A DNA stretch of 64,000 bases from a bacterium (GTDB taxonomy: Bacteria; Patescibacteriota; Patescibacteriia; UBA10025). The notes beneath the pieces were generated by a model. It was not told the origin of the DNA. It did no database searches and saw nothing but the letters and a program-made list of their open reading frames with translations. Positions within the stretch are counted from its first letter, which is position 1, and every line of letters starts with the position of its first letter. The position numbers and the translations under genes were made by a program. Location: contig JAKAGM010000002.1 in NCBI GenBank assembly GCA_021815445.1, positions 225,345 to 289,344 of the forward strand, given 5' to 3'. This document shows positions 48 through 13,696 of the stretch, one piece after another.

Positions 48-1973
48 ATGCTGCGAGTATCTGAGGCGTATCTCTCCTGGTACCTCCAGTGGCTGAAGGA
101 TGTCGGTGAAATGTTCTTCGATTGTTCATTCAGAGTGTCGAAGAACCGGAGAGCCGTACGGCGCCTCACTCTGGAGAATGACGGAAGGTTCGTTCACCGG
201 GGACTCCTAATCTTTCAAGAGGAAGTGTCTGTGTCATTTTTCGGCTTTGACAAAAAAGAATACTTCGCAACAGTGATCTCAGTGAGTGATGAGGAGATTG
301 TGGTCAGCTTCACCACTCCGCTTACACGGAGTGAGGCCCAGGGCCTGATGTCGTTCACGCGCAATGTGGATGAAGACATACCCAGGATTCAACGCGACTT
401 GTGTTGGAAGGCGCTTTCGCGAGATTCTGCGGATCCTTGTCCGCTCAGCGTGATGGCCGGTGACACCGTCAATCATGATGATGATGACGAACATTGGCTT
501 GCTGATCTTGAGCTGAGTGGTGAGAATGCTCGCCGCATACGCCAAGATGAATCACAGGCGGTTGCACTTGCCACGGTCACCGACCGGAGGTGGGTGAGCC
601 TCATCCACGGTCCTGCAGGTACCGGCAAAACATTCCTCACATCACTGGCGATACGGCAGTTTCATTCCCAAGCACGGGTGATTCTGCTCGTGTCCCACTC
701 TAACCAGGGGCTTGATAACCTCCTCGCCTTCGTCGCACAAAGTGTAGGGAATCCGGGAGCAATCTATCGCCTAGGAAATAATGCCAGGAACATTTCCAAA
801 TCCGCAGAGCAATTTCATCGGACGGCACGTTACGGCGGGTCGATGTCCGGCCAGAGGCTCAGTACTGAGGAAGCCAGCGACATAACGACGACGCTGATGT
901 ACGGGAAAAACGTCATTCTGGCGTGCACCATGACGTCATTTCTCATCGACCATACGATGGATATCTTGCGTCAGAAAGGTTTCCGGGCAGATGTCGTCAT
1001 TATCGATGAGGCTTCACGCGGACTCTTCTTTGAGGTTCTCCCTGTCATCGAAACTGCCAGCGGGCGAATCATCTTCGTCGGCGATCCGGATCAGCTCGGT
1101 AATATCGGCATCTCTCCGGACGCAAAGCAGTATCTCAATGAAGGCGGGTTTTCCCGTGAAGATATCGATCGTTTCACTGACGGTTGGTTCACGACGGTGA
1201 TTAGAGAGGGTCTCCTGCCCGTTGATCTTCTCCGGATCAATAGAAGGTCGCTCCCGGCCATCAGCGAACTTGTAAGCCGACTGTTCTACGGCGGGAGGTT
1301 AATCTCTGGACGGTTCGATCCTGAGAATCCCGGCCGGTTTGAATTTCTCGATACGAGTGCGGCCCAAGACGCCCATGACGAGCAGGTCGGCACCTCGTGG
1401 ATCAACCGTCGGGAAGCCAATCTCGTGGTCAGACAGATCGTGAAACTTCTGGCACAGGGAGTGAAGCCCGAGGATATCGGTGTGATTACCCCCTATCGAG
1501 GTCAGATTGCTTTGATTCGGCAGAAGTTGCGGGGAGAACTGGTCTTTCACCCCGCGCTGAAAAGTGTTCGCCTTGGTCTGCCAGGTGGAATGTCCATCGA
1601 TTTTTCCAATCAGCCAACAGATGGCGTTCAGTCTCCTGTCACCGAAGACAGTAAGATGACGCCGATCTTGCAGGCGCTCGGGCGGAGAATTGATACGTTG
1701 CTTCAGTCGTTAGTCAACACCGTTGATGCGTTTCAGGGATCGCAAAGGAAAGTCATTATCCTGAGCATGGTGCGCTCTAATGACGAGGGTGCGATCGGTT
1801 TCAACAGCAACGTCAGCCGGCTTCGGGTAGCATTTTCCCGCGCTGAAGACCGCCTCATCGTCATTGGCAGCTCTCGCACATTTCTCTCTAGCGACGTTCC
1901 GGAAGTCCGGAGCATTTTCCGGCAGTCAGTGGAATATGCCCGACAGCTGGAGTCGTACAGAGAGATCGAGTAA
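48..1973 (+). CDS. Superfamily 1 helicase, Upf1/DNA2-like (AAA_11/AAA_12), with ~190 aa N-terminal region of unknown function
   Basis: Walker A GPAGTGKT, Walker B VVIIDEAS, C-terminal VDAFQGSQRKVIILSMVRSN motif typical of Upf1-like SF1B helicases. Confidence 0.7.
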   Translation: MLRVSEAYLSWYLQWLKDVGEMFFDCSFRVSKNRRAVRRLTLENDGRFVHRGLLIFQEEVSVSFFGFDKKEYFATVISVSDEEIVVSFTTPLTRSEAQGLMSFTRNVDEDIPRIQRDLCWKALSRDSADPCPLSVMAGDTVNHDDDDEHWLADLELSGENARRIRQDESQAVALATVTDRRWVSLIHGPAGTGKTFLTSLAIRQFHSQARVILLVSHSNQGLDNLLAFVAQSVGNPGAIYRLGNNARNISKSAEQFHRTARYGGSMSGQRLSTEEASDITTTLMYGKNVILACTMTSFLIDHTMDILRQKGFRADVVIIDEASRGLFFEVLPVIETASGRIIFVGDPDQLGNIGISPDAKQYLNEGGFSREDIDRFTDGWFTTVIREGLLPVDLLRINRRSLPAISELVSRLFYGGRLISGRFDPENPGRFEFLDTSAAQDAHDEQVGTSWINRREANLVVRQIVKLLAQGVKPEDIGVITPYRGQIALIRQKLRGELVFHPALKSVRLGLPGGMSIDFSNQPTDGVQSPVTEDSKMTPILQALGRRIDTLLQSLVNTVDAFQGSQRKVIILSMVRSNDEGAIGFNSNVSRLRVAFSRAEDRLIVIGSSRTFLSSDVPEVRSIFRQSVEYARQLESYREIE

Positions 1974-1984
1974 ACGAAAAAATA

Positions 1985-2016
1985 GGGGTCGACCACGATG
2001 GTCGCCCCTTTTTTCT
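1985..2016 (+). terminator. Rho-independent terminator after helicase gene
   Basis: GC-rich hairpin GGGGTCGACC..GGTCGCCCC followed by TTTTTT. Confidence 0.6.
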
Positions 2017-2607
2017 TCTCTCCCGGGATTAGACCCGGCGGTGGGTACCCGACCTTAGCCCAACATCCCATTGGAATTGGGCGTTCAGGTTTCAGTAAGG
2101 GGCCCCACCCGAGGCCTATCACGCATCATGAGTTCGCCCGAGTCCGCACGGTATCCGCCGCCATGATACGTGAAATGGGTGGCAACTTCCGTCAGTGCGA
2201 GAAGCAGTACAATGGAAGTCGCCATCTGCCTGCCCACCGGGGCTGTTGCCCTGGCAAGCAGGAATGGCCTCGGAGAAGAAATGGTTTGTCCGACAAAGAA
2301 CGATCGTAGAAGCATCCAAACCCTCCTTGCTTCGAGGAATATAGAAGTTTTACTCGATTCTGATAAGAAAGTCAAGAGAGCTATTTTTTGTATTGTAAAA
2401 AGCTCCCCTCTGTCATCCTGCCTTCGGCCCTGACCATTCGGCGTTGAGGCCTCATGGCCGAAAAGGGGCTCAGGCCCAAGGGGAGCGAAGCCCCGCAATT
2501 GCGGGGCGAGATTCTTCCCCCGCCATCCGGCGGGGGAAGAATGACAAGAAAAAGCCTCATCATGAGCATTGTCAAAATCCATAGATTGTTTTACATTGTT
2601 GAGACCC

Positions 2608-2740
2608 GGAAGGGTCGCCCCGTCATGCGACGGGGCAGGCATAGTTGGTCTAGTGCGCTTGTTTAGCCACCCGCCGTGGCGGGGGGTACCGCCTCGTGCC
2701 AGAGGCAGATCAACCTCTGGCTGAAAAGGCGGGAAAAGCA
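2608..2740 (+). pseudogene. Degenerate tRNA-Ser-like element, copy A (pseudo-tRNA / tRNA-derived fragment)
   Basis: GGAAGGGTCGC and GCATAGTTGGTCTAGTGCGC match acceptor/D-arm of downstream tRNA-Ser; no complete cloverleaf can be folded; shares conserved 3' block AAAGGCGGGAAAAGC with copy B. Confidence 0.4.
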
Positions 2741-2778
2741 GTTTAATACATTATTTCAAACTTGGTTAAGCCCAGAGC

Positions 2779-2854
2779 GGAGAGGTCGCATAGTTGGTCT
2801 AGTGCGCACGCTTGGCCACCGCCTACGGCGGGGTCCCGCCAAAGGCGGGAAAAG
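2779..2854 (+). pseudogene. Degenerate tRNA-Ser-like element, copy B (pseudo-tRNA / tRNA-derived fragment)
   Basis: GGAGAGGTCGCATAGTTGGTCTAGTGCGC..TTGG parallels 5' half of tRNA-Ser (acceptor, D-arm, start of anticodon arm) but 3' half is not tRNA-like. Confidence 0.4.
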
Positions 2855-2869
2855 CTGTTGGTAAGAATT

Positions 2870-3115
2870 ATGTATTCAGTATATATTTTACAAAGTCAAT
2901 CTACTCAGCGTTACTATATAGGAGTTACTCAAGAAATTGATCAACGCATTCGCCATCATGAAAGCGGAGCGAATCGATCAACAAAAGGAAAAGGACCGTG
3001 GAAGCTAGTGTATAAAGAAGAATACCGGGATAGTAAATCTGCATGGCGGAGGGAGCGTCAGATCAAGAAGTATAAAGGTGGCAGAGCCTTCAAAAAGCTA
3101 GTTGGCAGAGAATAG
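2870..3115 (+). CDS. GIY-YIG nuclease family protein (YhbQ/UPF0213-like)
   Basis: MYSVYILQSQSTQRYYIGVTQEIDQRIRHHESG...KGKGPWKLVYKEEYRDSKSAWRRERQIKKY closely matches the small YhbQ-type GIY-YIG proteins. Confidence 0.75.
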   Translation: MYSVYILQSQSTQRYYIGVTQEIDQRIRHHESGANRSTKGKGPWKLVYKEEYRDSKSAWRRERQIKKYKGGRAFKKLVGRE

Positions 3116-3126
3116 TAGTGTAGTGT

Positions 3127-3213
3127 GGAAGGGTCGCATAGTGGACGAGTGCGCTTGCTTGGAAAGCAAGTAAGGGGTAAAACCCTTCGAGGGTTCGAAT
3201 CCCTCCCCTTCCG
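3127..3213 (+). tRNA. tRNA-Ser (anticodon GGA), class II with long variable arm
   Basis: Acceptor GGAAGGG/CCCTTCC, D-arm with GG, anticodon stem CTTGC/GCAAG and loop TTGGAAA, 18-nt variable arm, T-arm GAGGG-TTCGAAT-CCCTC, discriminator G; CCA not encoded. Confidence 0.8.
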
Positions 3214-3290
3214 GATCGACTATTTTTTATCGGATGCGATCAAAGTAAATCTTTAATTATAACCAACCTATACACAACATCATAAACAAC

Positions 3291-4493
3291 ATGGATAGGA
3301 ACATTTATATATTAGGCGCTGGTTTTAATCAAATTGTTTCTGACTGGGATGGCCTTAAACCCCCCATGTCTAAAAATTTTTTTCAAACCATTCTTAGATC
3401 TAGAAAATACTCTGAAGAATTTTACTTATCAAAAGTAAAAAATGTCTTTGATTATATTGAAAAAAATTGGGGGAAAACAAAAAACGACCTTTTAAAACAA
3501 GAGTTTAACCTGGAAGATGTTTTTACAAAATTACAATCAGAATTGCGATTAGAGTTACAAAAGAAAAGAACGAAAAAAGATATAGTAAATGAATTATTCC
3601 TTACAAACTTTCGCTTAGAAATGATGCTGGCGGAGTTCCTTTCAGAATTTGAAATACATAGCGTAAGAGATAAAACTGGTTTATTAAAAGAATTTGGTAA
3701 AAAAGTTCTAAATGAGAACGCAATTGTTATCACCTTTAATTATGACTGTATTTTAGAAGAAGCCATCGAGTCGGCATCGGGAGTGAATGTAAATGCCCCT
3801 AATAGTTACCTAAATCCAGAGGGACCATTTCAGAACAAAGAGGTGCCTGAGGAAGAGTTACCATACAGTCATCATAATTGGAATCGGCCCCTGGGATATG
3901 GGATAAAATTTGATGAAATTCAACTTCAGAGAGCTGGGATATCAACTTTTGAAAAAGGGGGTAGGTTTTATGGACATCACAAAAATAAACTATACGATTC
4001 GAGAATATTAAAATTGCATGGATCACTTAATTGGTTTCAATACTGGCCAATTCGAAAATTTCCTATTTTCCCAGGACAGCCTGATAAGCTTTCTCCAGAA
4101 AAAATGCAAGAAATTATCCTTGTGGATGGACACTGGCATTTTAACGATCCCCCAGACATAAATGGTTGGATAATTAACCCTTTAATAATTACTCCGGTAC
4201 TTTACAAAAATGAATTCTACCAAAATCAACCATTTATTGAACTCTGGAAACAAGCGAAAAATTATCTTTCTGAATGTGATAAATTGACTATTATCGGTTA
4301 TTCTTTCTCTAAAACTGATACAAGTATTCTGAGGTTATTGAGGAGTGTATTCAATCAACACCAGCTGCGAGAATTAGTGGTTGTGACTCGACACAAAGAA
4401 ATTGCTAATATAGCTCAAAAAATAACGAACTTTTCTAAACCTGCAACCAGGTATAATGATACAGAAAAATTCTTAAAAACTTTAAAGAACTAA
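3291..4493 (+). CDS. SIR2_2-domain (SIR2-like) protein, probable defense-associated NADase family
   Basis: N-terminal YILGAGFN Rossmann motif, TFNYDCILEE and KLHGSLNWF motifs typical of SIR2_2; gene is strongly AT-rich relative to flanks. Confidence 0.65.
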   Translation: MDRNIYILGAGFNQIVSDWDGLKPPMSKNFFQTILRSRKYSEEFYLSKVKNVFDYIEKNWGKTKNDLLKQEFNLEDVFTKLQSELRLELQKKRTKKDIVNELFLTNFRLEMMLAEFLSEFEIHSVRDKTGLLKEFGKKVLNENAIVITFNYDCILEEAIESASGVNVNAPNSYLNPEGPFQNKEVPEEELPYSHHNWNRPLGYGIKFDEIQLQRAGISTFEKGGRFYGHHKNKLYDSRILKLHGSLNWFQYWPIRKFPIFPGQPDKLSPEKMQEIILVDGHWHFNDPPDINGWIINPLIITPVLYKNEFYQNQPFIELWKQAKNYLSECDKLTIIGYSFSKTDTSILRLLRSVFNQHQLRELVVVTRHKEIANIAQKITNFSKPATRYNDTEKFLKTLKN

Positions 4494-4530
4494 AGCTAAT
4501 GATAGAATCCCGACCCACGTGCCTCAAATT

Positions 4531-4614
4531 CGCCCCTAGAAAAATTATCAGAAAGCCCTCATATTGTTGCTCAAGCGTGGGCACCTAACCCAAGTGGCCC
4601 GTACTTCAAAAAAC
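4531..4614 (+). repeat. Intergenic repeat element, copy 1 (~85 nt)
   Basis: GCCCCTAGAAAAATTATCAGAAAGCC...GGGCACCTAACCCAAGTGGCCCG..TTCAAAAAACC about 75% identical to copy 2 at 5531-5612. Confidence 0.6.
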
Positions 4615-4726
4615 CAATCGGAGGTTTTCCGCCTCTGCCCTGGAAACTAAAAATTTTAAGCCTGCCTTTGGATAGGCGGATTGCCACCCTGCCAGTATTA
4701 TTTTCTATTGGAGGCTAAGACGATGT

Positions 4727-5503
4727 ATGAACATATATTCTTGGAATGTATGGGACGACAATAAGACCCCGGAGCTCGTATTGAAGTTCATCCAGCAGCT
4801 TGATTTTGACATCTTGTGTCTTCAGGAAGTTCCAGAATCACTTTTGCAGAAACTCAGCGTCTTACCCTACGCGCAGGTTCACTTCGTGGACCTTACAAGA
4901 CTGCGACCAGAAAAAGAGGAAACGTGCTATTTGGTAATTCTTACTCATTATCACATTATTCATCATAGTTCGTTCTTGACGTGCCCAAAGCCAGTCTACC
5001 CTTTGCGTACCCGAGCTTTCCTAGGTCTGGGGTTATTTGGATTTACGAGGCTCAAGGATCATGGCGCACTCTATGCAGACATACGAATCCCCGGCAGTGA
5101 ACATCCCATTCGGGTTTTTTCGCTCCATCTACGTCTTAGCGGGCCCGTAGAAAGACAAAAAGAACTGGCTCTAGTCTCCAGCCATATGAATAAGGCCTAT
5201 CCGACCATGGTGTGTGGAGATTTCAATATTATTGATCAACCATTACAAAAATCCTTTAGTTGGCTTCTCGGTTCTTCCATACGCGAGGCCTTACCCTGGT
5301 ATCCCGAGAGGCGACGCATGGAACAGCAATTCGACGGCCTAGGTTTGAAGAATGTCTTGCGCGGCAAGAAAACGAATACCCGGTTCGCAAACCAGCTGGA
5401 TCATATTCTGGTACCAAAAGAATTCTCGGTTACGGCCGCCGGCGTATGCGAAAATTCATTTGGCTCAGACCATTACCCTGTTTACGTAACTATCAAGTCT
5501 TGA
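4727..5503 (+). CDS. Endonuclease/exonuclease/phosphatase (EEP, DNase I-like) family protein
   Basis: ILCLQEV, CGDFNI and GSDHYPVYV motifs characteristic of EEP superfamily. Confidence 0.7.
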   Translation: MNIYSWNVWDDNKTPELVLKFIQQLDFDILCLQEVPESLLQKLSVLPYAQVHFVDLTRLRPEKEETCYLVILTHYHIIHHSSFLTCPKPVYPLRTRAFLGLGLFGFTRLKDHGALYADIRIPGSEHPIRVFSLHLRLSGPVERQKELALVSSHMNKAYPTMVCGDFNIIDQPLQKSFSWLLGSSIREALPWYPERRRMEQQFDGLGLKNVLRGKKTNTRFANQLDHILVPKEFSVTAAGVCENSFGSDHYPVYVTIKS

Positions 5504-5530
5504 TAAACACAACCTGTGTTCCTCACAATT

Positions 5531-5612
5531 GCCCCTAGAACTATTATCAGAATTTCCTTATAATATTTGCATGACTTGGGCACTTAACCCGAGTGTCCCG
5601 CCAATTCAAAAA
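5531..5612 (+). repeat. Intergenic repeat element, copy 2 (~85 nt)
   Basis: GCCCCTAGAACTATTATCAGAATTTCC...GGGCACTTAACCCGAGTGTCCCG..TTCAAAAAAAT, paralogous to 4531-4614; lies immediately upstream of hydrolase start. Confidence 0.6.
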
Positions 5613-5618
5613 AATATT

Positions 5619-6242
5619 ATGCCTAAGCAAAAGCTTCAAATATTCATTATCCATGGTGGCAACACGCACCGAAGCCATACGAATTTCCTACGATACTTAA
5701 GAACCAGGAAAATTGACATACAGAAAAAAGCCGGGTGGAGCGGCCCGTACTTAGATAAAAAGCTGGGAAGAAAATTTCATATCATCAGACCTCGGATGCC
5801 TCTGCAAGATAATGCTAAATACAAAGAGTGGGCGCTCCACTTTGAAAGGCACATCCCGTATTTACACAACAACCTTATCCTGATCGGCGCATCTTTGGGC
5901 GGTATTTTCTTGGCCAAGTATCTCTCCGAGAATAAATTTCCCAAAAAGATACTTTCAACTTTTCTTGTCTGCCCCCCATTTGATGATACTCTCCCCAGTG
6001 AACATCTCACGGGCGGTTTTAAATTAAAATCAGATTTGTCATTACTACAAATAAATACGAAAAATTTGCGTCTGCTTTTTTCAAAGAATGATGATGTTGT
6101 CCCCGTATCGCATGCGAAAAAATATGCGGCTAAATTGCCCCATGCTCATATTGTAGTGTATAAGAACATCAACGAGCATTTTCGGATTCAAAAATTCCCA
6201 GAAATTATCCGGATGATCAAGCGGGATTATAATAATTTATAG
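5619..6242 (+). CDS. Alpha/beta hydrolase, YdeN/RBBP9-like serine hydrolase
   Basis: IFIIHGG near N-terminus, nucleophile elbow GASLGG, C-terminal His; start chosen at MPKQK because upstream in-frame extension overlaps the repeat element. Confidence 0.5.
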   Translation: MPKQKLQIFIIHGGNTHRSHTNFLRYLRTRKIDIQKKAGWSGPYLDKKLGRKFHIIRPRMPLQDNAKYKEWALHFERHIPYLHNNLILIGASLGGIFLAKYLSENKFPKKILSTFLVCPPFDDTLPSEHLTGGFKLKSDLSLLQINTKNLRLLFSKNDDVVPVSHAKKYAAKLPHAHIVVYKNINEHFRIQKFPEIIRMIKRDYNNL

Positions 6243-6352
6243 TCATAAATTTTCCCTCTTTACCACGGCCATTAGTATCGATTCGTGGCCTTTTGAGCAT
6301 ATCTAGCAATGATAGACTTCACACACCCATTCAACAGAGGTAATATAGAATT

Positions 6353-6928
6353 ATGAATGATGTAAAGAACGATAAAAGAGTGTTGCCGCAAAAACAGCGT
6401 GAAGAACTCCTCAGGGTGTTAAAGACCCGTTTTGAGAAAAACATGGATCGCCATAAGGGTGTCGCATGGGCTAAAGTACATGCACGGATTGAAGCTCGTG
6501 CTAAGAAACTGTGGTCGCTCAATGAAATGGAAAGAACCGGGGGTGAACCGGATGTTGTCGGTCATGATAAAAAGACGGGCGAATACATTTTTTATGATTG
6601 CTCAGCGGAAAGTCCTCGAGGCCGCAGAAGTATTTGTTACGACCGTCAAGCGCTGGAGTCCAGGAAAGAACATAAACCGAAAAATAACGCTCTAGATATG
6701 GCTGCTGCCATGGGCATTGAAATGTTAACTGAAGCACAATACCGGGATTTGCAAAAGTTCGGAAATTTCGATGCGAAGACGTCGAGCTGGGTGAAAACAC
6801 CCTCTGACATTCGAAAGCTCGGCGGCGCCCTCTTTGCTGATTACCGCTACAATAATGTCTTTGTGTATCACAACGGCGCAGAATCTTACTATGGCGTCAG
6901 GGGATTTCGCGGCTCGCTCAGGGTGTAA
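6353..6928 (+). CDS. Hypothetical protein, DUF4256-like
   Basis: Sequence (YDCSAESPRGRRS..NGAESYYGVRGFRGSLRV) recalled as DUF4256 family; no function known. Confidence 0.4.
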   Translation: MNDVKNDKRVLPQKQREELLRVLKTRFEKNMDRHKGVAWAKVHARIEARAKKLWSLNEMERTGGEPDVVGHDKKTGEYIFYDCSAESPRGRRSICYDRQALESRKEHKPKNNALDMAAAMGIEMLTEAQYRDLQKFGNFDAKTSSWVKTPSDIRKLGGALFADYRYNNVFVYHNGAESYYGVRGFRGSLRV

Positions 6929-7015
6929 ATTTGCGCCGACTGCTAGTTTAAAGGTGATACATCGTGTGGGCACAAGACCCGCCTGGCTCTCTAAAAGAAT
7001 GAATTACATCAACCT

Positions 7016-7573
7016 ATGAAAAAAACCACAAAGGCAACTCGCTTCAAAGCAGTTATCCTTACCGCTGATCAGTTTGAGGATATGGAAGTCTTTTTCCCGC
7101 TCTTTCGTCTCTTGGAAGCGGGATGGCAGGTAGATGTCGCCGCGCCGAGCAAGGAGCAAATTGGCGGGGAGCACGGGTACGCTTTACAGCCGGACAAAAC
7201 TATCGCTGAGGTTGATCCCGCCGAGTATCACATGCTCATTATTCCGGGCGGTTTCCCTGACGGTGCGCCGGCAACAGTCCGAAAAATAAAAAAGGCGCAG
7301 GAAATAACTAAGTCCTTTTTTGACGCGAACAAGCCCGTCGCTTCGATTTGCCACGGGCCGTGGACGCTTGCCTCGGCAAACGTAGTCAAAGGCAGGCACC
7401 TCACCTCATTCTGGCACGACGGCGTACCCGAGGATGTAAAAGCCGCCGGCGGGATTTGGGAGGATAAAGAGGTGGTTGTCGACGGCAACCTCGTCACTTC
7501 ACGTTGGCCTTTGGATCTCCCGGCATTTATGCGGGAGGTGATGAAGATGGTTGAACGGATTGAGAAAAAATAG
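7016..7573 (+). CDS. DJ-1/PfpI family protein (type 1 glutamine amidotransferase-like)
   Basis: ICHGPWTLASANVVKGRHLTSF with nucleophile Cys-His; typical length ~185 aa. Confidence 0.75.
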   Translation: MKKTTKATRFKAVILTADQFEDMEVFFPLFRLLEAGWQVDVAAPSKEQIGGEHGYALQPDKTIAEVDPAEYHMLIIPGGFPDGAPATVRKIKKAQEITKSFFDANKPVASICHGPWTLASANVVKGRHLTSFWHDGVPEDVKAAGGIWEDKEVVVDGNLVTSRWPLDLPAFMREVMKMVERIEKK

Positions 7574-7639
7574 GGCAGGTGTATTGCACATATAGGTGGG
7601 GATAGTGGTGTCGGAATACACTCGCGCACCCACGGCGGG

Positions 7640-7996
7640 GTGCGCTATACTACATATATACCAACTATGTTTTTCCGCGCACACCTAAACCCAACACCCG
7701 CCAAAAGAGTCATTTACCTGTGCAGCACCGTTGTTCTGGGCATTTTATTGAGTATCCTGGCACATGTCGGGATTGAATCACTGTATCTCAACTGGGCGCA
7801 GGACAAGGGAATCGGGATTGTCTGGCACTCGGCTTTCGGGTTAACCAGTGCCGCGTGCGCCCTGCACCCTATCATTCAGTGGGGCCTTGTGGCTCTCGGC
7901 GCAGTGGGCGGATACATGCTCGGCAGGTTCTGGTGGAGGATGGTGTATATCGAACGGTGGTGGAGCAAAGATGATATTCGACGACAACCGAAATAA
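7640..7996 (+). CDS. Hypothetical membrane protein
   Basis: Three predicted hydrophobic helices; no recognisable motif. Confidence 0.35.
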   Translation: MRYTTYIPTMFFRAHLNPTPAKRVIYLCSTVVLGILLSILAHVGIESLYLNWAQDKGIGIVWHSAFGLTSAACALHPIIQWGLVALGAVGGYMLGRFWWRMVYIERWWSKDDIRRQPK

Positions 7997-8001
7997 CCCA
8001 C

Positions 8002-8370
8002 ATGATCTTTTTTAGGGCACACCGTCAACTGCTTCTGCGTAAGGAGCTTATTTTAGAATTCATAACGTTTGCACTGGCTATCGGATTCATCTCAGCGTTG
8101 AAGGGTCAGGTGATTTTGCTTACTATCGTACTTATTTTATTATCAGTGATTGCTAATCGTGTGTGGCACCAGAAGCATGACATCTTTTTTTATATCACCG
8201 GTGCCATTCTCGGGCCGTTATCAGAGATTGTCTGTACCAACTTTGGTGTTTGGCGATACGCTCATCCGACTTTTTTCAGTATTCCCTTATGGCTTCCATT
8301 CGCATGGGGTCTCGCCGCAGTGTTGATTACGCGGATTGCGGAGACGTTTGTGAAGATTGAAAAGAGGTAG
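8002..8370 (+). CDS. Hypothetical membrane protein
   Basis: Multiple hydrophobic segments; no recognisable motif. Confidence 0.35.
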   Translation: MIFFRAHRQLLLRKELILEFITFALAIGFISALKGQVILLTIVLILLSVIANRVWHQKHDIFFYITGAILGPLSEIVCTNFGVWRYAHPTFFSIPLWLPFAWGLAAVLITRIAETFVKIEKR

Positions 8371-8383
8371 ACGAAATTCGGCA

Positions 8384-9055
8384 ATGAAGGCACGCTCCGT
8401 TATCGCCAAACTTAAGACTCACGCAAACGCCAAGAACGTTGCCGGTATGGCGAGGTTCGGCATCAACCCGCACACAACGCTTGGTGTTTCTATACCGGTG
8501 TTGCGAGGCATGGCCCGGGATATCGGGAAAGACCATGCGTTAGCCCGGCAACTTTGGAGCACGGGAATCCATGAAGCGCGTCTCCTTGCGGCGTTCGTCG
8601 AAGATCCGAAGCTGGTAACGCAGGCGCAGATGAATGTGTGGGTGGCGCAGTTCGACAGCTGGGACGTGTGCGACCAAGTGTGCAGTAATGTCTTCGACAA
8701 GACGCCATTCGCTATTCAAAAAGCCAAGGAGTGGGCACGGGACAGGCGAGAGTTTGTTCGGAGGGCTGGCTTTGTCCTTATGGCGTGTTTGGCTGTCCAT
8801 GACAAAAAGGCCGGCGACACAGTGTTTACAAGCTTTTTTCCGCTTATCAAAAGCATGTCAGTGGACGAGCGCAACTTCGTCAAAAAAGCTGTTAACTGGG
8901 CACTTCGACAGATTGGCAAAAGGAATGTAAGATTACAAAAAGCAGCTATCAAAGTCGCTGAAGACATTCTCAAAAAAGATTCGCCATCGGCTCGCTGGAT
9001 TGCCGCTGACGCGCTCCGTGAACTGCGTGCCAAAAAGTTCAAAAAGCATACCTAA
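8384..9055 (+). CDS. DNA alkylation repair enzyme (AlkD/AlkC-like HEAT-repeat glycosylase family)
   Basis: ARFGINPHTTLGVSIPVLRGMAR...WDVCDQVCSNVF matches DNA_alkylation family; start at internal ATG to avoid overlap with upstream ORF. Confidence 0.6.
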   Translation: MKARSVIAKLKTHANAKNVAGMARFGINPHTTLGVSIPVLRGMARDIGKDHALARQLWSTGIHEARLLAAFVEDPKLVTQAQMNVWVAQFDSWDVCDQVCSNVFDKTPFAIQKAKEWARDRREFVRRAGFVLMACLAVHDKKAGDTVFTSFFPLIKSMSVDERNFVKKAVNWALRQIGKRNVRLQKAAIKVAEDILKKDSPSARWIAADALRELRAKKFKKHT

Positions 9056-9058
9056 CCT

Positions 9059-9685
9059 ATGGGCATTACCGCATTTCTCATTCATTATTTTACCCTGATT
9101 ATTTCAGCAACAGGATACCCCGGCATTGCCTTGCTTATGGCGCTTGAGAGCATGGTGGCGCCCGTGCCGAGCGAGGCGGTGATGCCGTTTACGGGATTTT
9201 TGCTCTATGAACACAAAATGGCGCTGATTGGCATCATCATCGCGAGCACGCTGGGCAGTATCATCGGTTCCCTCATTTCATACTACATCGGCATGTACGG
9301 CGGGCGAGCAATCGTCAGGAAGTGGGGAAAGTTTCTTTTGCTTAATGAACACCATCTGGATCTCACGGAAAAGTTTTTTTCACGATATGGAGATAAGACC
9401 ATTTTTTTCAGCAGGTTCATCCCCGTCGTGCGGCACTTCATCTCGATCCCCGCGGGTGTGGGGGAAATGAAGGTATGGAAATTCACCGTCTATACCGCCG
9501 TCGGGGCGGCAATCTGGAATAGTTTCCTCATGTACGTGGGATATTATCTGGGCAGCAACTGGGAGTCGATCAGGAAATACAGCGAAATCATCGATATGGT
9601 CATTGTCGCAATGATTGTCGCCGCAGTGGTATATTTCTTTGTCCGCAGGCGCAAGGCTGTTTTACCGCCGGAGAATCCTTCGTAA
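9059..9685 (+). CDS. DedA family membrane protein (SNARE-associated/TVP38)
   Basis: YPGIALLMALESMVAPVPSE..GFLL and FIPVVRHFISIPAG motifs. Confidence 0.7.
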   Translation: MGITAFLIHYFTLIISATGYPGIALLMALESMVAPVPSEAVMPFTGFLLYEHKMALIGIIIASTLGSIIGSLISYYIGMYGGRAIVRKWGKFLLLNEHHLDLTEKFFSRYGDKTIFFSRFIPVVRHFISIPAGVGEMKVWKFTVYTAVGAAIWNSFLMYVGYYLGSNWESIRKYSEIIDMVIVAMIVAAVVYFFVRRRKAVLPPENPS

Positions 9686-11692: not shown

Positions 11693-11749
11693 GCACGCTC
11701 AGGCCGTGACCCTCTCCATTCGTTTTCATTATGTTTCTTTATCATAGGC

Positions 11750-12943
11750 ATGACGAGTATCATGAAGAAAAAAAAGCGCATAGAGAAAAAACCGCCAAAA
11801 ACTAAAAAGCAGACACCGAGGAAAGCCAGACAGCGAAAAGCCGAGGTTGAAACGATCCCGGAGGACGTAATCCGCAAACTCATCCAAAAAGGACGGTCGC
11901 GGGGATTTATCACCGAGACTGAAATTCTCTACGCGCTTCCCGATGTCGAGGAACACCTCCTCGAGTATGAGGAACTTCTCGACACGTTCGAGCATGTGGG
12001 CATCCAGGTCGTCGAGCACCAGGCGTCTCTTATCAATCTCCCTGAGCCCGTAGAGGTGGAAAAGAAAAAAGGAAAGAAAAAAGCCGCCGATGCCCGTTAC
12101 CTCGACCTTTCTGACATCTCAAACGATTCTATACAGATGTATCTCAGGGAAATCGGCAAGGTGCCTCTCTTAAATGCGGAAGAAGAGGTCTCGCTGGCAA
12201 AGCGGAAAGATCGCGGAGAAGTCGAAGCAAAAAAGAAACTTGTCGAAGCCAACCTCCGCCTTGTCGTAAGTATCGCAAAGAAATTCACCGGCAGGTCGCT
12301 CTCTCTCCTTGATCTTATCCAGGAGGGCAACATCGGCCTGTTCAGAGCCGTCGAGAAATTTGATTACCGCAAGGGCTACAAATTTTCCACCTATGCCACG
12401 TGGTGGATCCGCCAGGCGATCACCCGTTCGCTTGCCGACCAATCACGGACTATCCGCATTCCCGTCCACATGGTAGAGACGATTAACAAATTCCAGCAGG
12501 TAGAGCGCCAGCTCATCCAGGACCTGGGCCGGGAGCCGCTCCCAGAGGAAATTGCCGCTGAGATGGGCGAGGAGGTTGACAAAATCCACCATATCATTAA
12601 GATTTCACAAGACACCGTCTCCCTCGAAACCTCTGTCGGCGACAGCGATGACGAGGATTCGGTTCTCGGCGACTTCATCGAAGACGTCAAATCAATGACG
12701 CCTGATCGCGTCGCCGCCATGCAACTCCTCAAAGACCACGTGCAGGGGATTATCCAGGAACTTTCACCGCGTGAGCAGAAGATTCTCGAAATGCGCTTCG
12801 GACTGATCGACGGCGTCGCGCATACCCTCGAGGAAGTCGGCCATGAATTCGGCGTCACCCGGGAGCGCATCCGCCAGATTGAAGCCAAGGCGCTCGAGAA
12901 GATTGAGGAGCATGAGGGCATGAAGCGGCTAAAGGATTACTAG
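11750..12943 (+). CDS. rpoD: RNA polymerase sigma factor RpoD (sigma-70)
   Basis: Region 2 [39 protein letters not shown], region 4 HTH; conserved dnaG-rpoD order. Confidence 0.9.
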
Positions 12944-13314: not shown

Positions 13315-13604
13315 TCCGGAGTAGCTCAATGGTTAGAGCAACCGGCTGTGAACTTTAAACGCAGCTCCCGACGGAAACGTCTGGATGAACTCTCCGGGAT
13401 AACGGTGAAGGCTAAGTGCAAATGTAATTTGGATACGCTAACACCGTGGGAACCCACCTGCGCTAAAGCTTCGGTGGGGCGCCGTAGAGACTAGATACCG
13501 GAGTACCCAAAAAGCAATATGGGTAAAGATATAGTCCGTGCCGTATGGAAACATATGGAGTATACGTAACCGGTAGGTTGTCGGTTCGAGTCCGACCTCC
13601 GGAG
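13315..13604 (+). tRNA. tRNA-Asn (anticodon GUU) interrupted by a group I intron in the anticodon loop (exons 13315-13349 and 13567-13604)
   Basis: Acceptor TCCGGAG/CTCCGGA, D-arm GCTC-AATGGTTA-GAGC, anticodon stem ACCGG/CCGGT, spliced loop CTGT|TAA, variable AGGTT, T-arm GTCGG-TTCGAGT-CCGAC, discriminator G. Confidence 0.7.
13350..13566 (+). ncRNA. Group I self-splicing intron (no ORF) within tRNA-Asn anticodon loop
   Basis: 5' exon ends in U (GCUGU) that can pair with internal guide GCAGC at intron 5' end (U-G wobble), conserved R-like GAGACUAGA and S element AAGAUAUAGUCC forming P7, terminal G before 3' exon. Confidence 0.7.
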
Positions 13605-13696
13605 CATAGCGCGTAATAAAAATAGAGCATGACCCGAGAATCCCGAGGGTCAGTTTTAGGTATCTTAATTAATCATTCTTATGTGTATATACTATT

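Follow-up and report, generated by a model that had tools for sequence, protein, structure and literature searches.

A low-GC, stand-alone SIR2 gene beside a rearranged tRNA-Ser in a Patescibacteria genome: a candidate one-gene abortive-infection module

Directly 3' of a tRNA-Ser(GGA) gene in a Patescibacteria genome (assembly GCA_021815445.1, contig JAKAGM010000002.1) there is a 400-codon gene of foreign composition for a protein of the SIR2_2 family, and it is this gene, and how little of its surroundings belongs with it, that is considered here. The stretch analysed, termed the window, comprises 64,000 nucleotides (nt; positions 225,345 to 289,344 of the forward strand). An earlier note made from its letters had pictured SIR2 and the two genes after it, for an EEP-family 'nuclease' and an alpha/beta hydrolase, as one island integrated at the tRNA. 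The explanation favoured here, to which we give a probability of about 55%, is narrower, namely that a single foreign, stand-alone SIR2 gene sits in a variable hotspot extending from tRNA-Ser to dnaG and encodes a nicotinamide adenine dinucleotide (NAD)-consuming enzyme, a NADase, acting as an abortive-infection module, with the EEP and hydrolase genes being native. The gene order that had been described, tRNA-Ser(GGA) followed by SIR2_2, EEP and YdeN-like genes, was borne out by ARAGORN, Rfam and Pfam, and the features at issue are the following (ORF, open reading frame).

3291 to 4493, plus strand: stand-alone SIR2_2 (SIRim) protein, 400 residues, a low-GC foreign gene (Pfam, family alignment, AlphaFold, composition)
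3126 to 3214, plus strand: complete tRNA-Ser(GGA) (ARAGORN; Rfam tRNA, 56.8 bits)
2870 to 3115, plus strand: YhbQ-like stand-alone GIY-YIG nuclease-domain ORF, 81 residues (Pfam GIY-YIG E 5e-15, scored on the longer ORF 2762-3115)
4727 to 5503, plus strand: EEP-fold (Exo_endo_phos) metal-dependent phosphoesterase, 258 residues (Pfam E 1.8e-12)
5619 to 6242, plus strand: YdeN-like alpha/beta serine hydrolase (PF06821), 207 residues from the ATG at 5619 (Pfam Ser_hydrolase E 1.1e-9)

Composition sets the SIR2 gene apart. The flanks have a GC content of about 52%, which in 400-nt windows goes down to 30-37% over 3200-4600; the drop seen earlier is real, though the figure of about 33% then given for all three genes holds for SIR2 only (33.0%), with EEP at 46.3%, the hydrolase at 39.9% and the GIY-YIG ORF at 40.7%. 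For GC at third codon positions (GC3) the reference was the 50 genes of the window (mean 0.562, standard deviation 0.079). SIR2, at 0.282, has a z of -3.55, and the second outlier, at 0.329 (z -2.94), is the GIY-YIG ORF on the other side of tRNA-Ser, of which the earlier note made no mention. Every other gene has an absolute z below 1.4, with the hydrolase (-1.39), a DUF4256 gene (-1.05) and EEP (-0.86) lying within the normal spread. Tetranucleotide usage is likewise anomalous (z 4.6-5.6), with the anomaly restricted to about 3000-4500. Since SIR2 and GIY-YIG alone deviate, and the k-mer anomaly has these limits, the compositional islet consists of GIY-YIG, tRNA-Ser and SIR2 and not of SIR2, EEP and hydrolase. 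Its low-GC DNA begins at the break in a truncated copy of tRNA-Ser (copy 2, below) and stops about 12-18 nt past the SIR2 stop codon, just where the native promoter-like element of EEP begins. The GC gap between gene and flanks, -0.19 for SIR2 here as against +0.01 to -0.09 for family members in other hosts, points to recent arrival.

The SIR2 ORF passes the cut-off of Pfam SIR2_2 (PF13289) marginally, with 27.9 bits against 24.5, and the same domain is matched by all 34 aligned family members (best E 3.8e-8). Its translation carries ILGAGFNQ, TFNYDCILEE and LKLHGSLNW, containing the three motifs by which the earlier note had rightly recognised it. Within these, N150, Y151, D152 and H243 are invariant in the family alignment and G9 and G11 (of G9-A-G11) are at least 90% conserved, positions that we take to be the GAG, TQNID-type and HG motifs of sirtuins. 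The residues are equivalent to N163/D165/H212 of the Paenibacillus SIR2, PsSIR2 (PMC11472057), and to N112/H152 of ThsA (bioRxiv 10.1101/2024.09.18.613514). The window protein has the sirtuin Rossmann fold with its NAD pocket and its catalytic Asn and His; the likeness to defence-associated sirtuins holds, and loss of catalytic residues, which the earlier note had named, together with a match to a housekeeping sirtuin, as a ground for refutation, is not seen. The AlphaFold model is confident throughout (pLDDT 87, pTM 0.87), with Foldseek in agreement, and a search of PDB sequences with the family profile returned nothing even at E <= 1. About 130 residues, including a beta-rich insertion around residues 165-300, are specific to the family, and in the window protein there is no additional domain beyond SIR2. 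The four-Cys zinc module of deacylase sirtuins, which is needed for deacylation (PMC12700824), was not found in the family alignment, where just two Cys, C153 and C329, are invariant.

Every antiphage SIR2 protein known so far belongs to the SIRim/SIR2_2 clade, for which an immune function has been proposed throughout (10.1101/2024.09.18.613514; PMC12700824), and its characterised prokaryotic members are without exception antiphage NADases (10.1101/2024.09.18.613514). By analogy with them the window SIR2 most probably hydrolyses NAD+ and is probably a one-gene abortive-infection module. We propose that it would be kept inactive until a trigger arrives, by analogy with the SIR2 of SIR2-HerA, ThsA and DSR2, which are its nearest structural relatives; in the first of these a helical small domain holds SIR2 autoinhibited until activation (PMC11472057). 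The trigger would relieve inhibition by the helical small domain, at about residues 27-142 of the window protein, and/or drive SIR2 oligomerisation, upon which NAD+ would collapse and the infected cell be aborted.

That the host is a member of the Patescibacteria is reflected in its DnaG, whose named relatives are found only there (Parcubacteria, Kerfeldbacteria), the closest being 61% identical. Two relatives permit comparison of the locus. L085 (GCA_042570925.1) has kept the gene order PPDK, Big_7 protein, SF1 helicase, non-coding gap, tRNA-Ser(GGA), dnaG, rpoD and tRNA-Asn, and the only genes it carries in the interval from tRNA-Ser to dnaG are one for an HD protein and a 200-codon ORF. In L091 eight unrelated genes, for an ABC transporter, a Na/Ca exchanger, TerC and others, stand between tRNA-Ser(GGA) and dnaG. 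Of the nine genes that the window has in this interval, not one has a homologue at either locus, which makes the interval a hypervariable hotspot on the downstream side of a tRNA-Ser whose position is conserved. The comparison with relatives proposed at the outset accordingly did not refute the earlier idea, the genes in question being absent from the syntenic position. Absence there in combination with foreign composition applies to SIR2 and GIY-YIG only; of the island beside the tRNA what endures is a foreign-looking SIR2 gene in a variable region, while the three-gene extent does not, EEP and hydrolase being typical of the genome in composition.

A protein search gave 418 SIR2 homologues, the nearest 54% identical. 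Those with a name among or close to the best matches come from archaea (Ca. Argoarchaeum, Hodarchaeota and Methanosarcina-type). Among genome loci, drawn from one-genome-per-species contigs, distribution is patchy across archaea (Methanosarcinales, Bathyarchaeia, Promethearchaeota, Nitrososphaeria) and bacteria (Chloroflexota, Gammaproteobacteria, Clostridia, Acidobacteriota), and none of the close family members there (29-46% identity) has a Patescibacteria source. An exhaustive profile search among 1.84 billion representatives found 202 clusters at 50% identity with E <= 1e-30. Members are 380-545 residues long and the SIR2 profile spans the entire protein.

The family keeps no constant company. 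The 12 closest genome loci have no shared neighbour family, and when 29 metagenome loci and the Ca. Argoarchaeum locus were added, to give 42 loci with 339 neighbouring ORFs, SIR2 itself was the sole shared cluster. Homologues of the window's EEP, hydrolase, GIY-YIG, helicase, DUF4256 and DJ-1 genes are absent from these 42, and no homologue of EEP, hydrolase, GIY-YIG or DUF4256 occurs in any of 160 loci with SIR2 relatives. Neither is tRNA adjacency a trait of other family loci. In Ca. Argoarchaeum SIR2 is a single gene amid housekeeping ones, between enolase/FeoA and OMP-decarboxylase genes, and in two Ca. Argoarchaeum ethanivorans assemblies a 109-residue Phage_integrase fragment (L098, 4679-5008; L099, 4654-4983) lies directly upstream of P0004, the closest SIR2 homologue that has a name (55% identity, third in the list of homologues). 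The fragment hints that the family travels as single-gene islets.

A further observation concerns family structure. About half of the members (about 475 residues, e.g. P0043, P0059 and P0080) have a conserved C-terminal extension of about 75 residues, with the motifs CKTCG...GIRTNPRSFAT...CPNGH...YDK (alignment A1, columns about 460-540), which the window SIR2 is without. The extension is Cys/His-rich (CxxC...CPxGH) and looks like a zinc ribbon that could be a sensor or nucleic-acid-binding module.

Several points tell against the favoured explanation. The relatives with which gene order was compared are remote, with DnaG about 60% identical, so that synteny alone dates no single insertion. 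PADLOC, the scan that had been recommended, matched generic SIR2 profiles but assigned no system. The genes around the 12 closest genome homologues are for the most part housekeeping ones, defence-like matches being few (PDC-S13 and one OLD/AriA/GajA-like ATPase), so that no clear signal of a defence island emerges. Searches of phage and plasmid record collections gave no match to the family, and an IMG/VR search found four distant SIR2_2 proteins and nothing else. Full-length identity across domains is high, at 45-55%, with no recognisable sensor domain, and such conservation is less typical of fast-evolving defence proteins; a conserved enzymatic role would also fit. Of 114 highly conserved columns the window protein deviates at 13, against a family median of 3.5, and it may, on this evidence from the alignment, have lost part of its function. 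No terminator is predicted after SIR2, and read-through transcription from SIR2 into EEP may for that reason occur.

Some of these points are what one would expect if SIR2 were no immune effector at all but a conserved NAD-dependent enzyme, for instance an ADP-ribosyltransferase or a regulator of a cellular target, that spreads horizontally. Conservation over the whole sequence (mean column identity 53%, with invariant surface-type motifs such as NWNRPLGYG and TPVLYK), housekeeping neighbours, the lack of a sensor domain and absence from phage and plasmid records all suit this possibility, and some sirtuin-fold proteins (SirTM) are indeed ADP-ribosyltransferases (PMC12700824). We nevertheless rate it as rather unlikely, given membership of a clade whose characterised prokaryotic proteins are antiphage NADases, the missing deacylation module, and a set of accessory features, namely extreme patchiness (about 202 clusters), single-gene islets with an integrase remnant, and foreign composition.

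It is a good deal less probable that the gene is a decaying passenger, recently transferred, under relaxed selection and of no function in this host. Unameliorated composition and a marginal Pfam score could be so explained, as could the 13 deviations, 8 of which fall in the last 60 residues. Yet the ORF is unbroken over its 400 codons, every residue that is invariant in the family has been kept, the catalytic ones among them, the model is confident over its whole length, and the identical protein occurs on 12 contigs from several sequencing runs; moreover P0116 (21) and P0110 (14) deviate at more columns and P0071 (13) at equally many.

There remain the two genes downstream. The EEP protein has its catalytic residues E34, D165/N167, D225/H226 and D248/H249 invariant; that it is a DNase I-like nuclease, as the earlier note had it, is not established, the family profile aligning in PDB with ExoIII/APE1 over only the N-terminal 36-47 residues or so and with mannosyl-6-phosphatase and uncharacterised EEP proteins near full length. 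Orthologues in other Patescibacteria-type contigs are 84, 82, 81 and 74% identical, and remoter named relatives are from Paceibacterota and Kaiserbacteria. The SIR2 gene is present at none of five loci with EEP orthologues (L086-L090; 74-84% identity), and PADLOC finds nothing in the EEP protein. That the hydrolase is YdeN-like was upheld, its nearest solved homologue being YdeN itself (1uxo, E 1e-3), and in L088 an orthologue 81% identical is encoded two genes away from the EEP orthologue; the PADLOC match of the hydrolase ORF is marginal, a partial one to DUF1837/HamA (E 0.001, 16.5 bits). All 12 public contigs with this exact EEP protein, which are from the same organism, also carry SIR2, so that no empty site (strain-level polymorphism) was found.

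What EEP and hydrolase do have in common is an element of about 95 nt, which nhmmer aligned at both positions (E 1.5e-22 upstream of EEP and 2.1e-21 upstream of the hydrolase).

4511 to 4602, plus strand: element copy upstream of EEP, with box GACCCAnnTGCCTCAAA, -10-like CATATT and imperfect palindrome GGGCACCTAACCCAAGTGGCCC
5510 to 5603, plus strand: element copy upstream of the hydrolase start codon, with TATAAT and GGGCACTTAACCCGAGTGTCCC

The layout is a box GACCCAnnTGCCTCAAA, a TATAAT-like hexamer at fixed spacing, placed at about 4565 and 5565 in the window, and then an imperfect palindrome, GGGCACTTAACCCGAGTGNCCCGCC / GGGCACTTAACCCGAGTGGCCCGCC, within which is YTAACCC. Like both of its sub-motifs it occurs exactly twice in the 64 kb, before EEP, where it begins 18 nt past the SIR2 stop codon, and before the hydrolase; SIR2 has no such element upstream. 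In 12 kb of L088 it occurs five times (1478-1593, 2409-2499, 3179-3272, 4290-4380 and 11726-11823), before EEP, NUDIX, ADH, cupin and ABC genes. Judged by these sequences the element is probably a promoter plus operator, or a leader, of a small lineage-specific regulon, and co-regulation of EEP and hydrolase with each other through it is the best explanation of its sharing. The palindrome may possibly be a DNA operator or a short leader hairpin.

Other readings of the element were considered. As an RNA structure the palindrome is weak (RNAalifold -3.3 kcal/mol, with one of six pairs covarying), and there is no Rfam match for the element at E <= 5. Integron attC sites have an inverted-repeat architecture, R''(RYYYAAC)...R'(GTTRRRY), between cassettes. 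A RYYYAAC-like word is found in all seven copies, yet there is no R' partner after it, and in the second copy the start codon is 27 nt downstream; the conserved TATAAT at fixed spacing fits a promoter instead, and the integron reading was rejected. As to the hydrolase start, the public call is an ATG at 5571, inside the upstream element, and the ATG at 5619 (MPKQKLQIFIIHGG...) is more likely; in the copy before EEP the frame equivalent to the 5571 start is open but is without a start codon.

The best reading, then, is that EEP and hydrolase are native Patescibacteria accessory genes and not functional partners of SIR2. The proposal that SIR2, the EEP 'nuclease' and the hydrolase constitute one acquired multi-gene defence system, in which NAD depletion would be joined to nucleic-acid degradation, can draw on the three genes being adjoining and co-oriented with no terminator predicted between SIR2 and EEP, on the 12 of 12 contigs (albeit of one organism) and on the precedent of SIR2-HerA, which shows that NADase and nuclease activities are combinable in SIR2 systems (PMC11472057), but it is most improbable, having been largely refuted by comparative genomics, since the supposed pair recurs in neither the 160 SIR2 nor the five EEP-orthologue loci, the 42 SIR2 loci have no shared neighbour, EEP and hydrolase are host-like in composition with close Patescibacteria orthologues and promoter-like elements of their own, PADLOC gives them no more than the marginal match mentioned, and EEP is not an established nuclease. 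SIR2 is a plausible orphan gene, and the multi-gene system proposed very probably does not exist.

How does the window SIR2 compare with the systems already described? SIR2-HerA (Nezha; PDB 8W9L/8WLD, 8YHX, 8J4U) has a HerA ATPase gene, and none adjoins SIR2 here or in the 42 family loci; the neighbours are tRNA-Ser and GIY-YIG upstream and EEP downstream, with the helicase farther off being an SF1 one (AAA_11/AAA_12) and not HerA, and the likeness of the SIR2 proteins themselves is too low in sequence for a PDB match with the family profile. With DSR1 and DSR2 there is in common a one-gene system built on a SIR2_2-type NADase, and abortive infection by NAD+ depletion is what is proposed here too. 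DSR proteins run to about 1000 residues or beyond and bind phage proteins through large C-terminal sensor domains, whereas the window protein has 400 residues and its family 380-545, SIR2 from end to end, and no DSR profile was among the PADLOC matches. ThsA of Thoeris has a SLOG or Macro domain and a TIR-domain ThsB neighbour, neither of which is present here, nor did PADLOC match ThsA or ThsB. To SPARSA (short pAgo with SIR2-APAZ) there is a weak Aga_SIR2 match (E 4e-4) over the shared SIR2 core, with no pAgo neighbour. AbiH (PF14253) was discarded, the score being 16.7 bits against a cut-off of 30.9 and even such a match occurring in just one of 34 family members.

If SIR2 is an autonomous NAD-depleting defence, then at about 400 residues no smaller stand-alone immune effector of the sirtuin type would be known to us, and it would be a HerA-independent relative of the Nezha SIR2; how a protein without a recognisable sensor domain detects infection would become a question. 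Patescibacteria have reduced genomes and few known defences, which lends its presence there some interest, and with its nearest relatives being archaeal it would be an added case of gene flow between domains.

How the gene came to be where it is turns on the tRNA-Ser locus, which has in addition these features.

2779 to 2815, plus strand: truncated tRNA-Ser(GGA) 5' half, copy 2, with the GGAGAGG acceptor common to both relatives
2608 to 2666, plus strand: truncated tRNA-Ser 5' half, copy 1, with GGAAGGG acceptor and a 20-nt insertion in the D arm
2816 to 2860, plus strand: GC-rich two-hairpin junction after copy 2 (repeats D3, D19)

The complete tRNA-Ser has the acceptor stem GGAAGGG/CCCTTCC, two compensated pairs off the GGAGAGG/CCTCTCC of L085 and L091. 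Copy 2, which was also picked up as repeat families D3, D4 and D17, shares 96% identity with the 5' part of the L085 tRNA-Ser across 28 nt. It stops with TTGG, behind nucleotide 35 of the anticodon, and copy 1 is broken off at the same point of the loop (between TTAG and CCACC). A homologous and longer junction segment follows copy 1 at 2667-2745. The junction sequence after the 5' halves is CCACCGCC...GGCGGGAAAAGC, and it ends in AAAGGCGGGAAAAGCWGTT, which has just two occurrences in the window, at 2725 and at 2841; folding of 2600-2870 gave a z of -3.8. The GIY-YIG ORF, left out of the public gene call, sits between copy 2 and the complete tRNA-Ser, and no relatives of it were found in viral contigs. 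Two truncated 5' halves with the same break and homologous hairpins suggest repeated site-specific disruption and replacement of tRNA-Ser.

A classical integration at the tRNA 3' end, as first surmised, is not what is seen. In common with tyrosine-integrase islands, foreign-composition DNA abuts a tRNA and the content of the interval varies between relatives. The differences are that neither an integrase nor a directly repeated tRNA 3' end is present, and that instead there are two truncated 5' halves and a complete replacement tRNA with GIY-YIG between. No recombinase family was matched among the genes at 1974-9685, and ORFs in the gap at 1974-2864 are without Pfam match. The search for attR that had been called for, a BLAST of the tRNA-Ser 3' half (of this genome or of L085) against the whole 64 kb, gave repeats of at most 13 nt, which is chance level.

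We tentatively entertain the idea that a block with GIY-YIG, a replacement tRNA-Ser and SIR2 was inserted into the resident tRNA-Ser at its anticodon loop, perhaps following an earlier event of like kind; insertion as one block is inferred and is the simplest reading of the locus. The low-GC block, of about 1.7 kb (about 2816-4505) and acquired horizontally, would comprise the GC-rich junction, GIY-YIG, the complete tRNA-Ser(GGA) and SIR2, starting exactly where the older, clade-typical tRNA-Ser copy is cut in its anticodon loop and ending just before the native EEP promoter element. Weighing against insertion in one block are the failure to recover the displaced 3' half of the old tRNA-Ser, the need to account for the second truncated copy (2608-2666) as well, and the finding that adjacency to GIY-YIG and a tRNA does not recur in other SIR2 family loci.

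A bolder version, which we regard as doubtful, would make of GIY-YIG, tRNA-Ser and SIR2 an integrase-free cassette that homes into the tRNA-Ser anticodon loop, and of the HerA-less SIR2 family of about 200 clusters a new antiphage system, consisting of one gene and common to archaea and bacteria. Such a cassette would destroy the resident tRNA-Ser, supply a cleavage-resistant replacement and bring along a defence gene as cargo. There would have been two serial events, each with the break after nucleotide 35 and with homologous junctions, and the acceptor types would have alternated from GGAAGGG to GGAGAGG and back to GGAAGGG.

Other interpretations of the tRNA remnants were rejected. For a group I/homing-endonuclease intron in tRNA-Ser there is just 54 nt from the break to the GIY-YIG ORF and 10 nt after that ORF, with no Intron_gpI match and no 3' exon. 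In a split or trans-spliced tRNA the anticodon stem of the 5' halves would be without a partner strand, and in a hybrid of an old 5' half with the 3' half of the complete tRNA both acceptor and anticodon stems mismatch.

There is a genuine intron not far away. The tRNA-Asn(GUU) gene at 13315-13606, missed by ARAGORN, is split by a group I intron of 217 nt (Rfam RF00028, 54 bits against a cut-off of 50), with exon 1 at 13315-13349, the intron at 13350-13566 and exon 2 from 13567 to about 13606. It separates nucleotides 35 and 36 of the anticodon, with U as the last letter of the 5' exon and G as that of the intron; the truncated tRNA-Ser copies, like this intron site, break after nucleotide 35. 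At the syntenic site after rpoD the tRNA-Asn of L085 is intronless. A rearranged tRNA-Ser and, 10 kb from it, an intron-bearing tRNA-Asn suggest that anticodon loops have been recurrent targets of selfish elements in this lineage.

Upstream of all this is the SF1 helicase (AAA_11/AAA_12, Upf1-like), of which window positions 48-1973 are the 3' part of a gene for 789 residues. It matches the PADLOC Mokosh profile MkoA with E 1.4e-61, and since it is syntenic (49% identity) in the SIR2-less L085 it is apparently a core gene rather than a component of a defence island. Between its stop codon (1973) and the tRNA-like repeats there is a non-coding gap of about 620 nt (1990-2610, plus strand), with no Rfam match at E <= 5 and no Pfam match for any ORF, including a publicly annotated minus-strand gene of 165 residues. 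Compared with shuffled sequence it folds with a z of -10.0 on the plus strand (minimum free energy -272.5 kcal/mol) and -6.0 on the minus strand, and its counterpart in L085 (8105-8690) with a z of -4.45; a large structured RNA is one possibility and a stack of GC-rich hairpins another.

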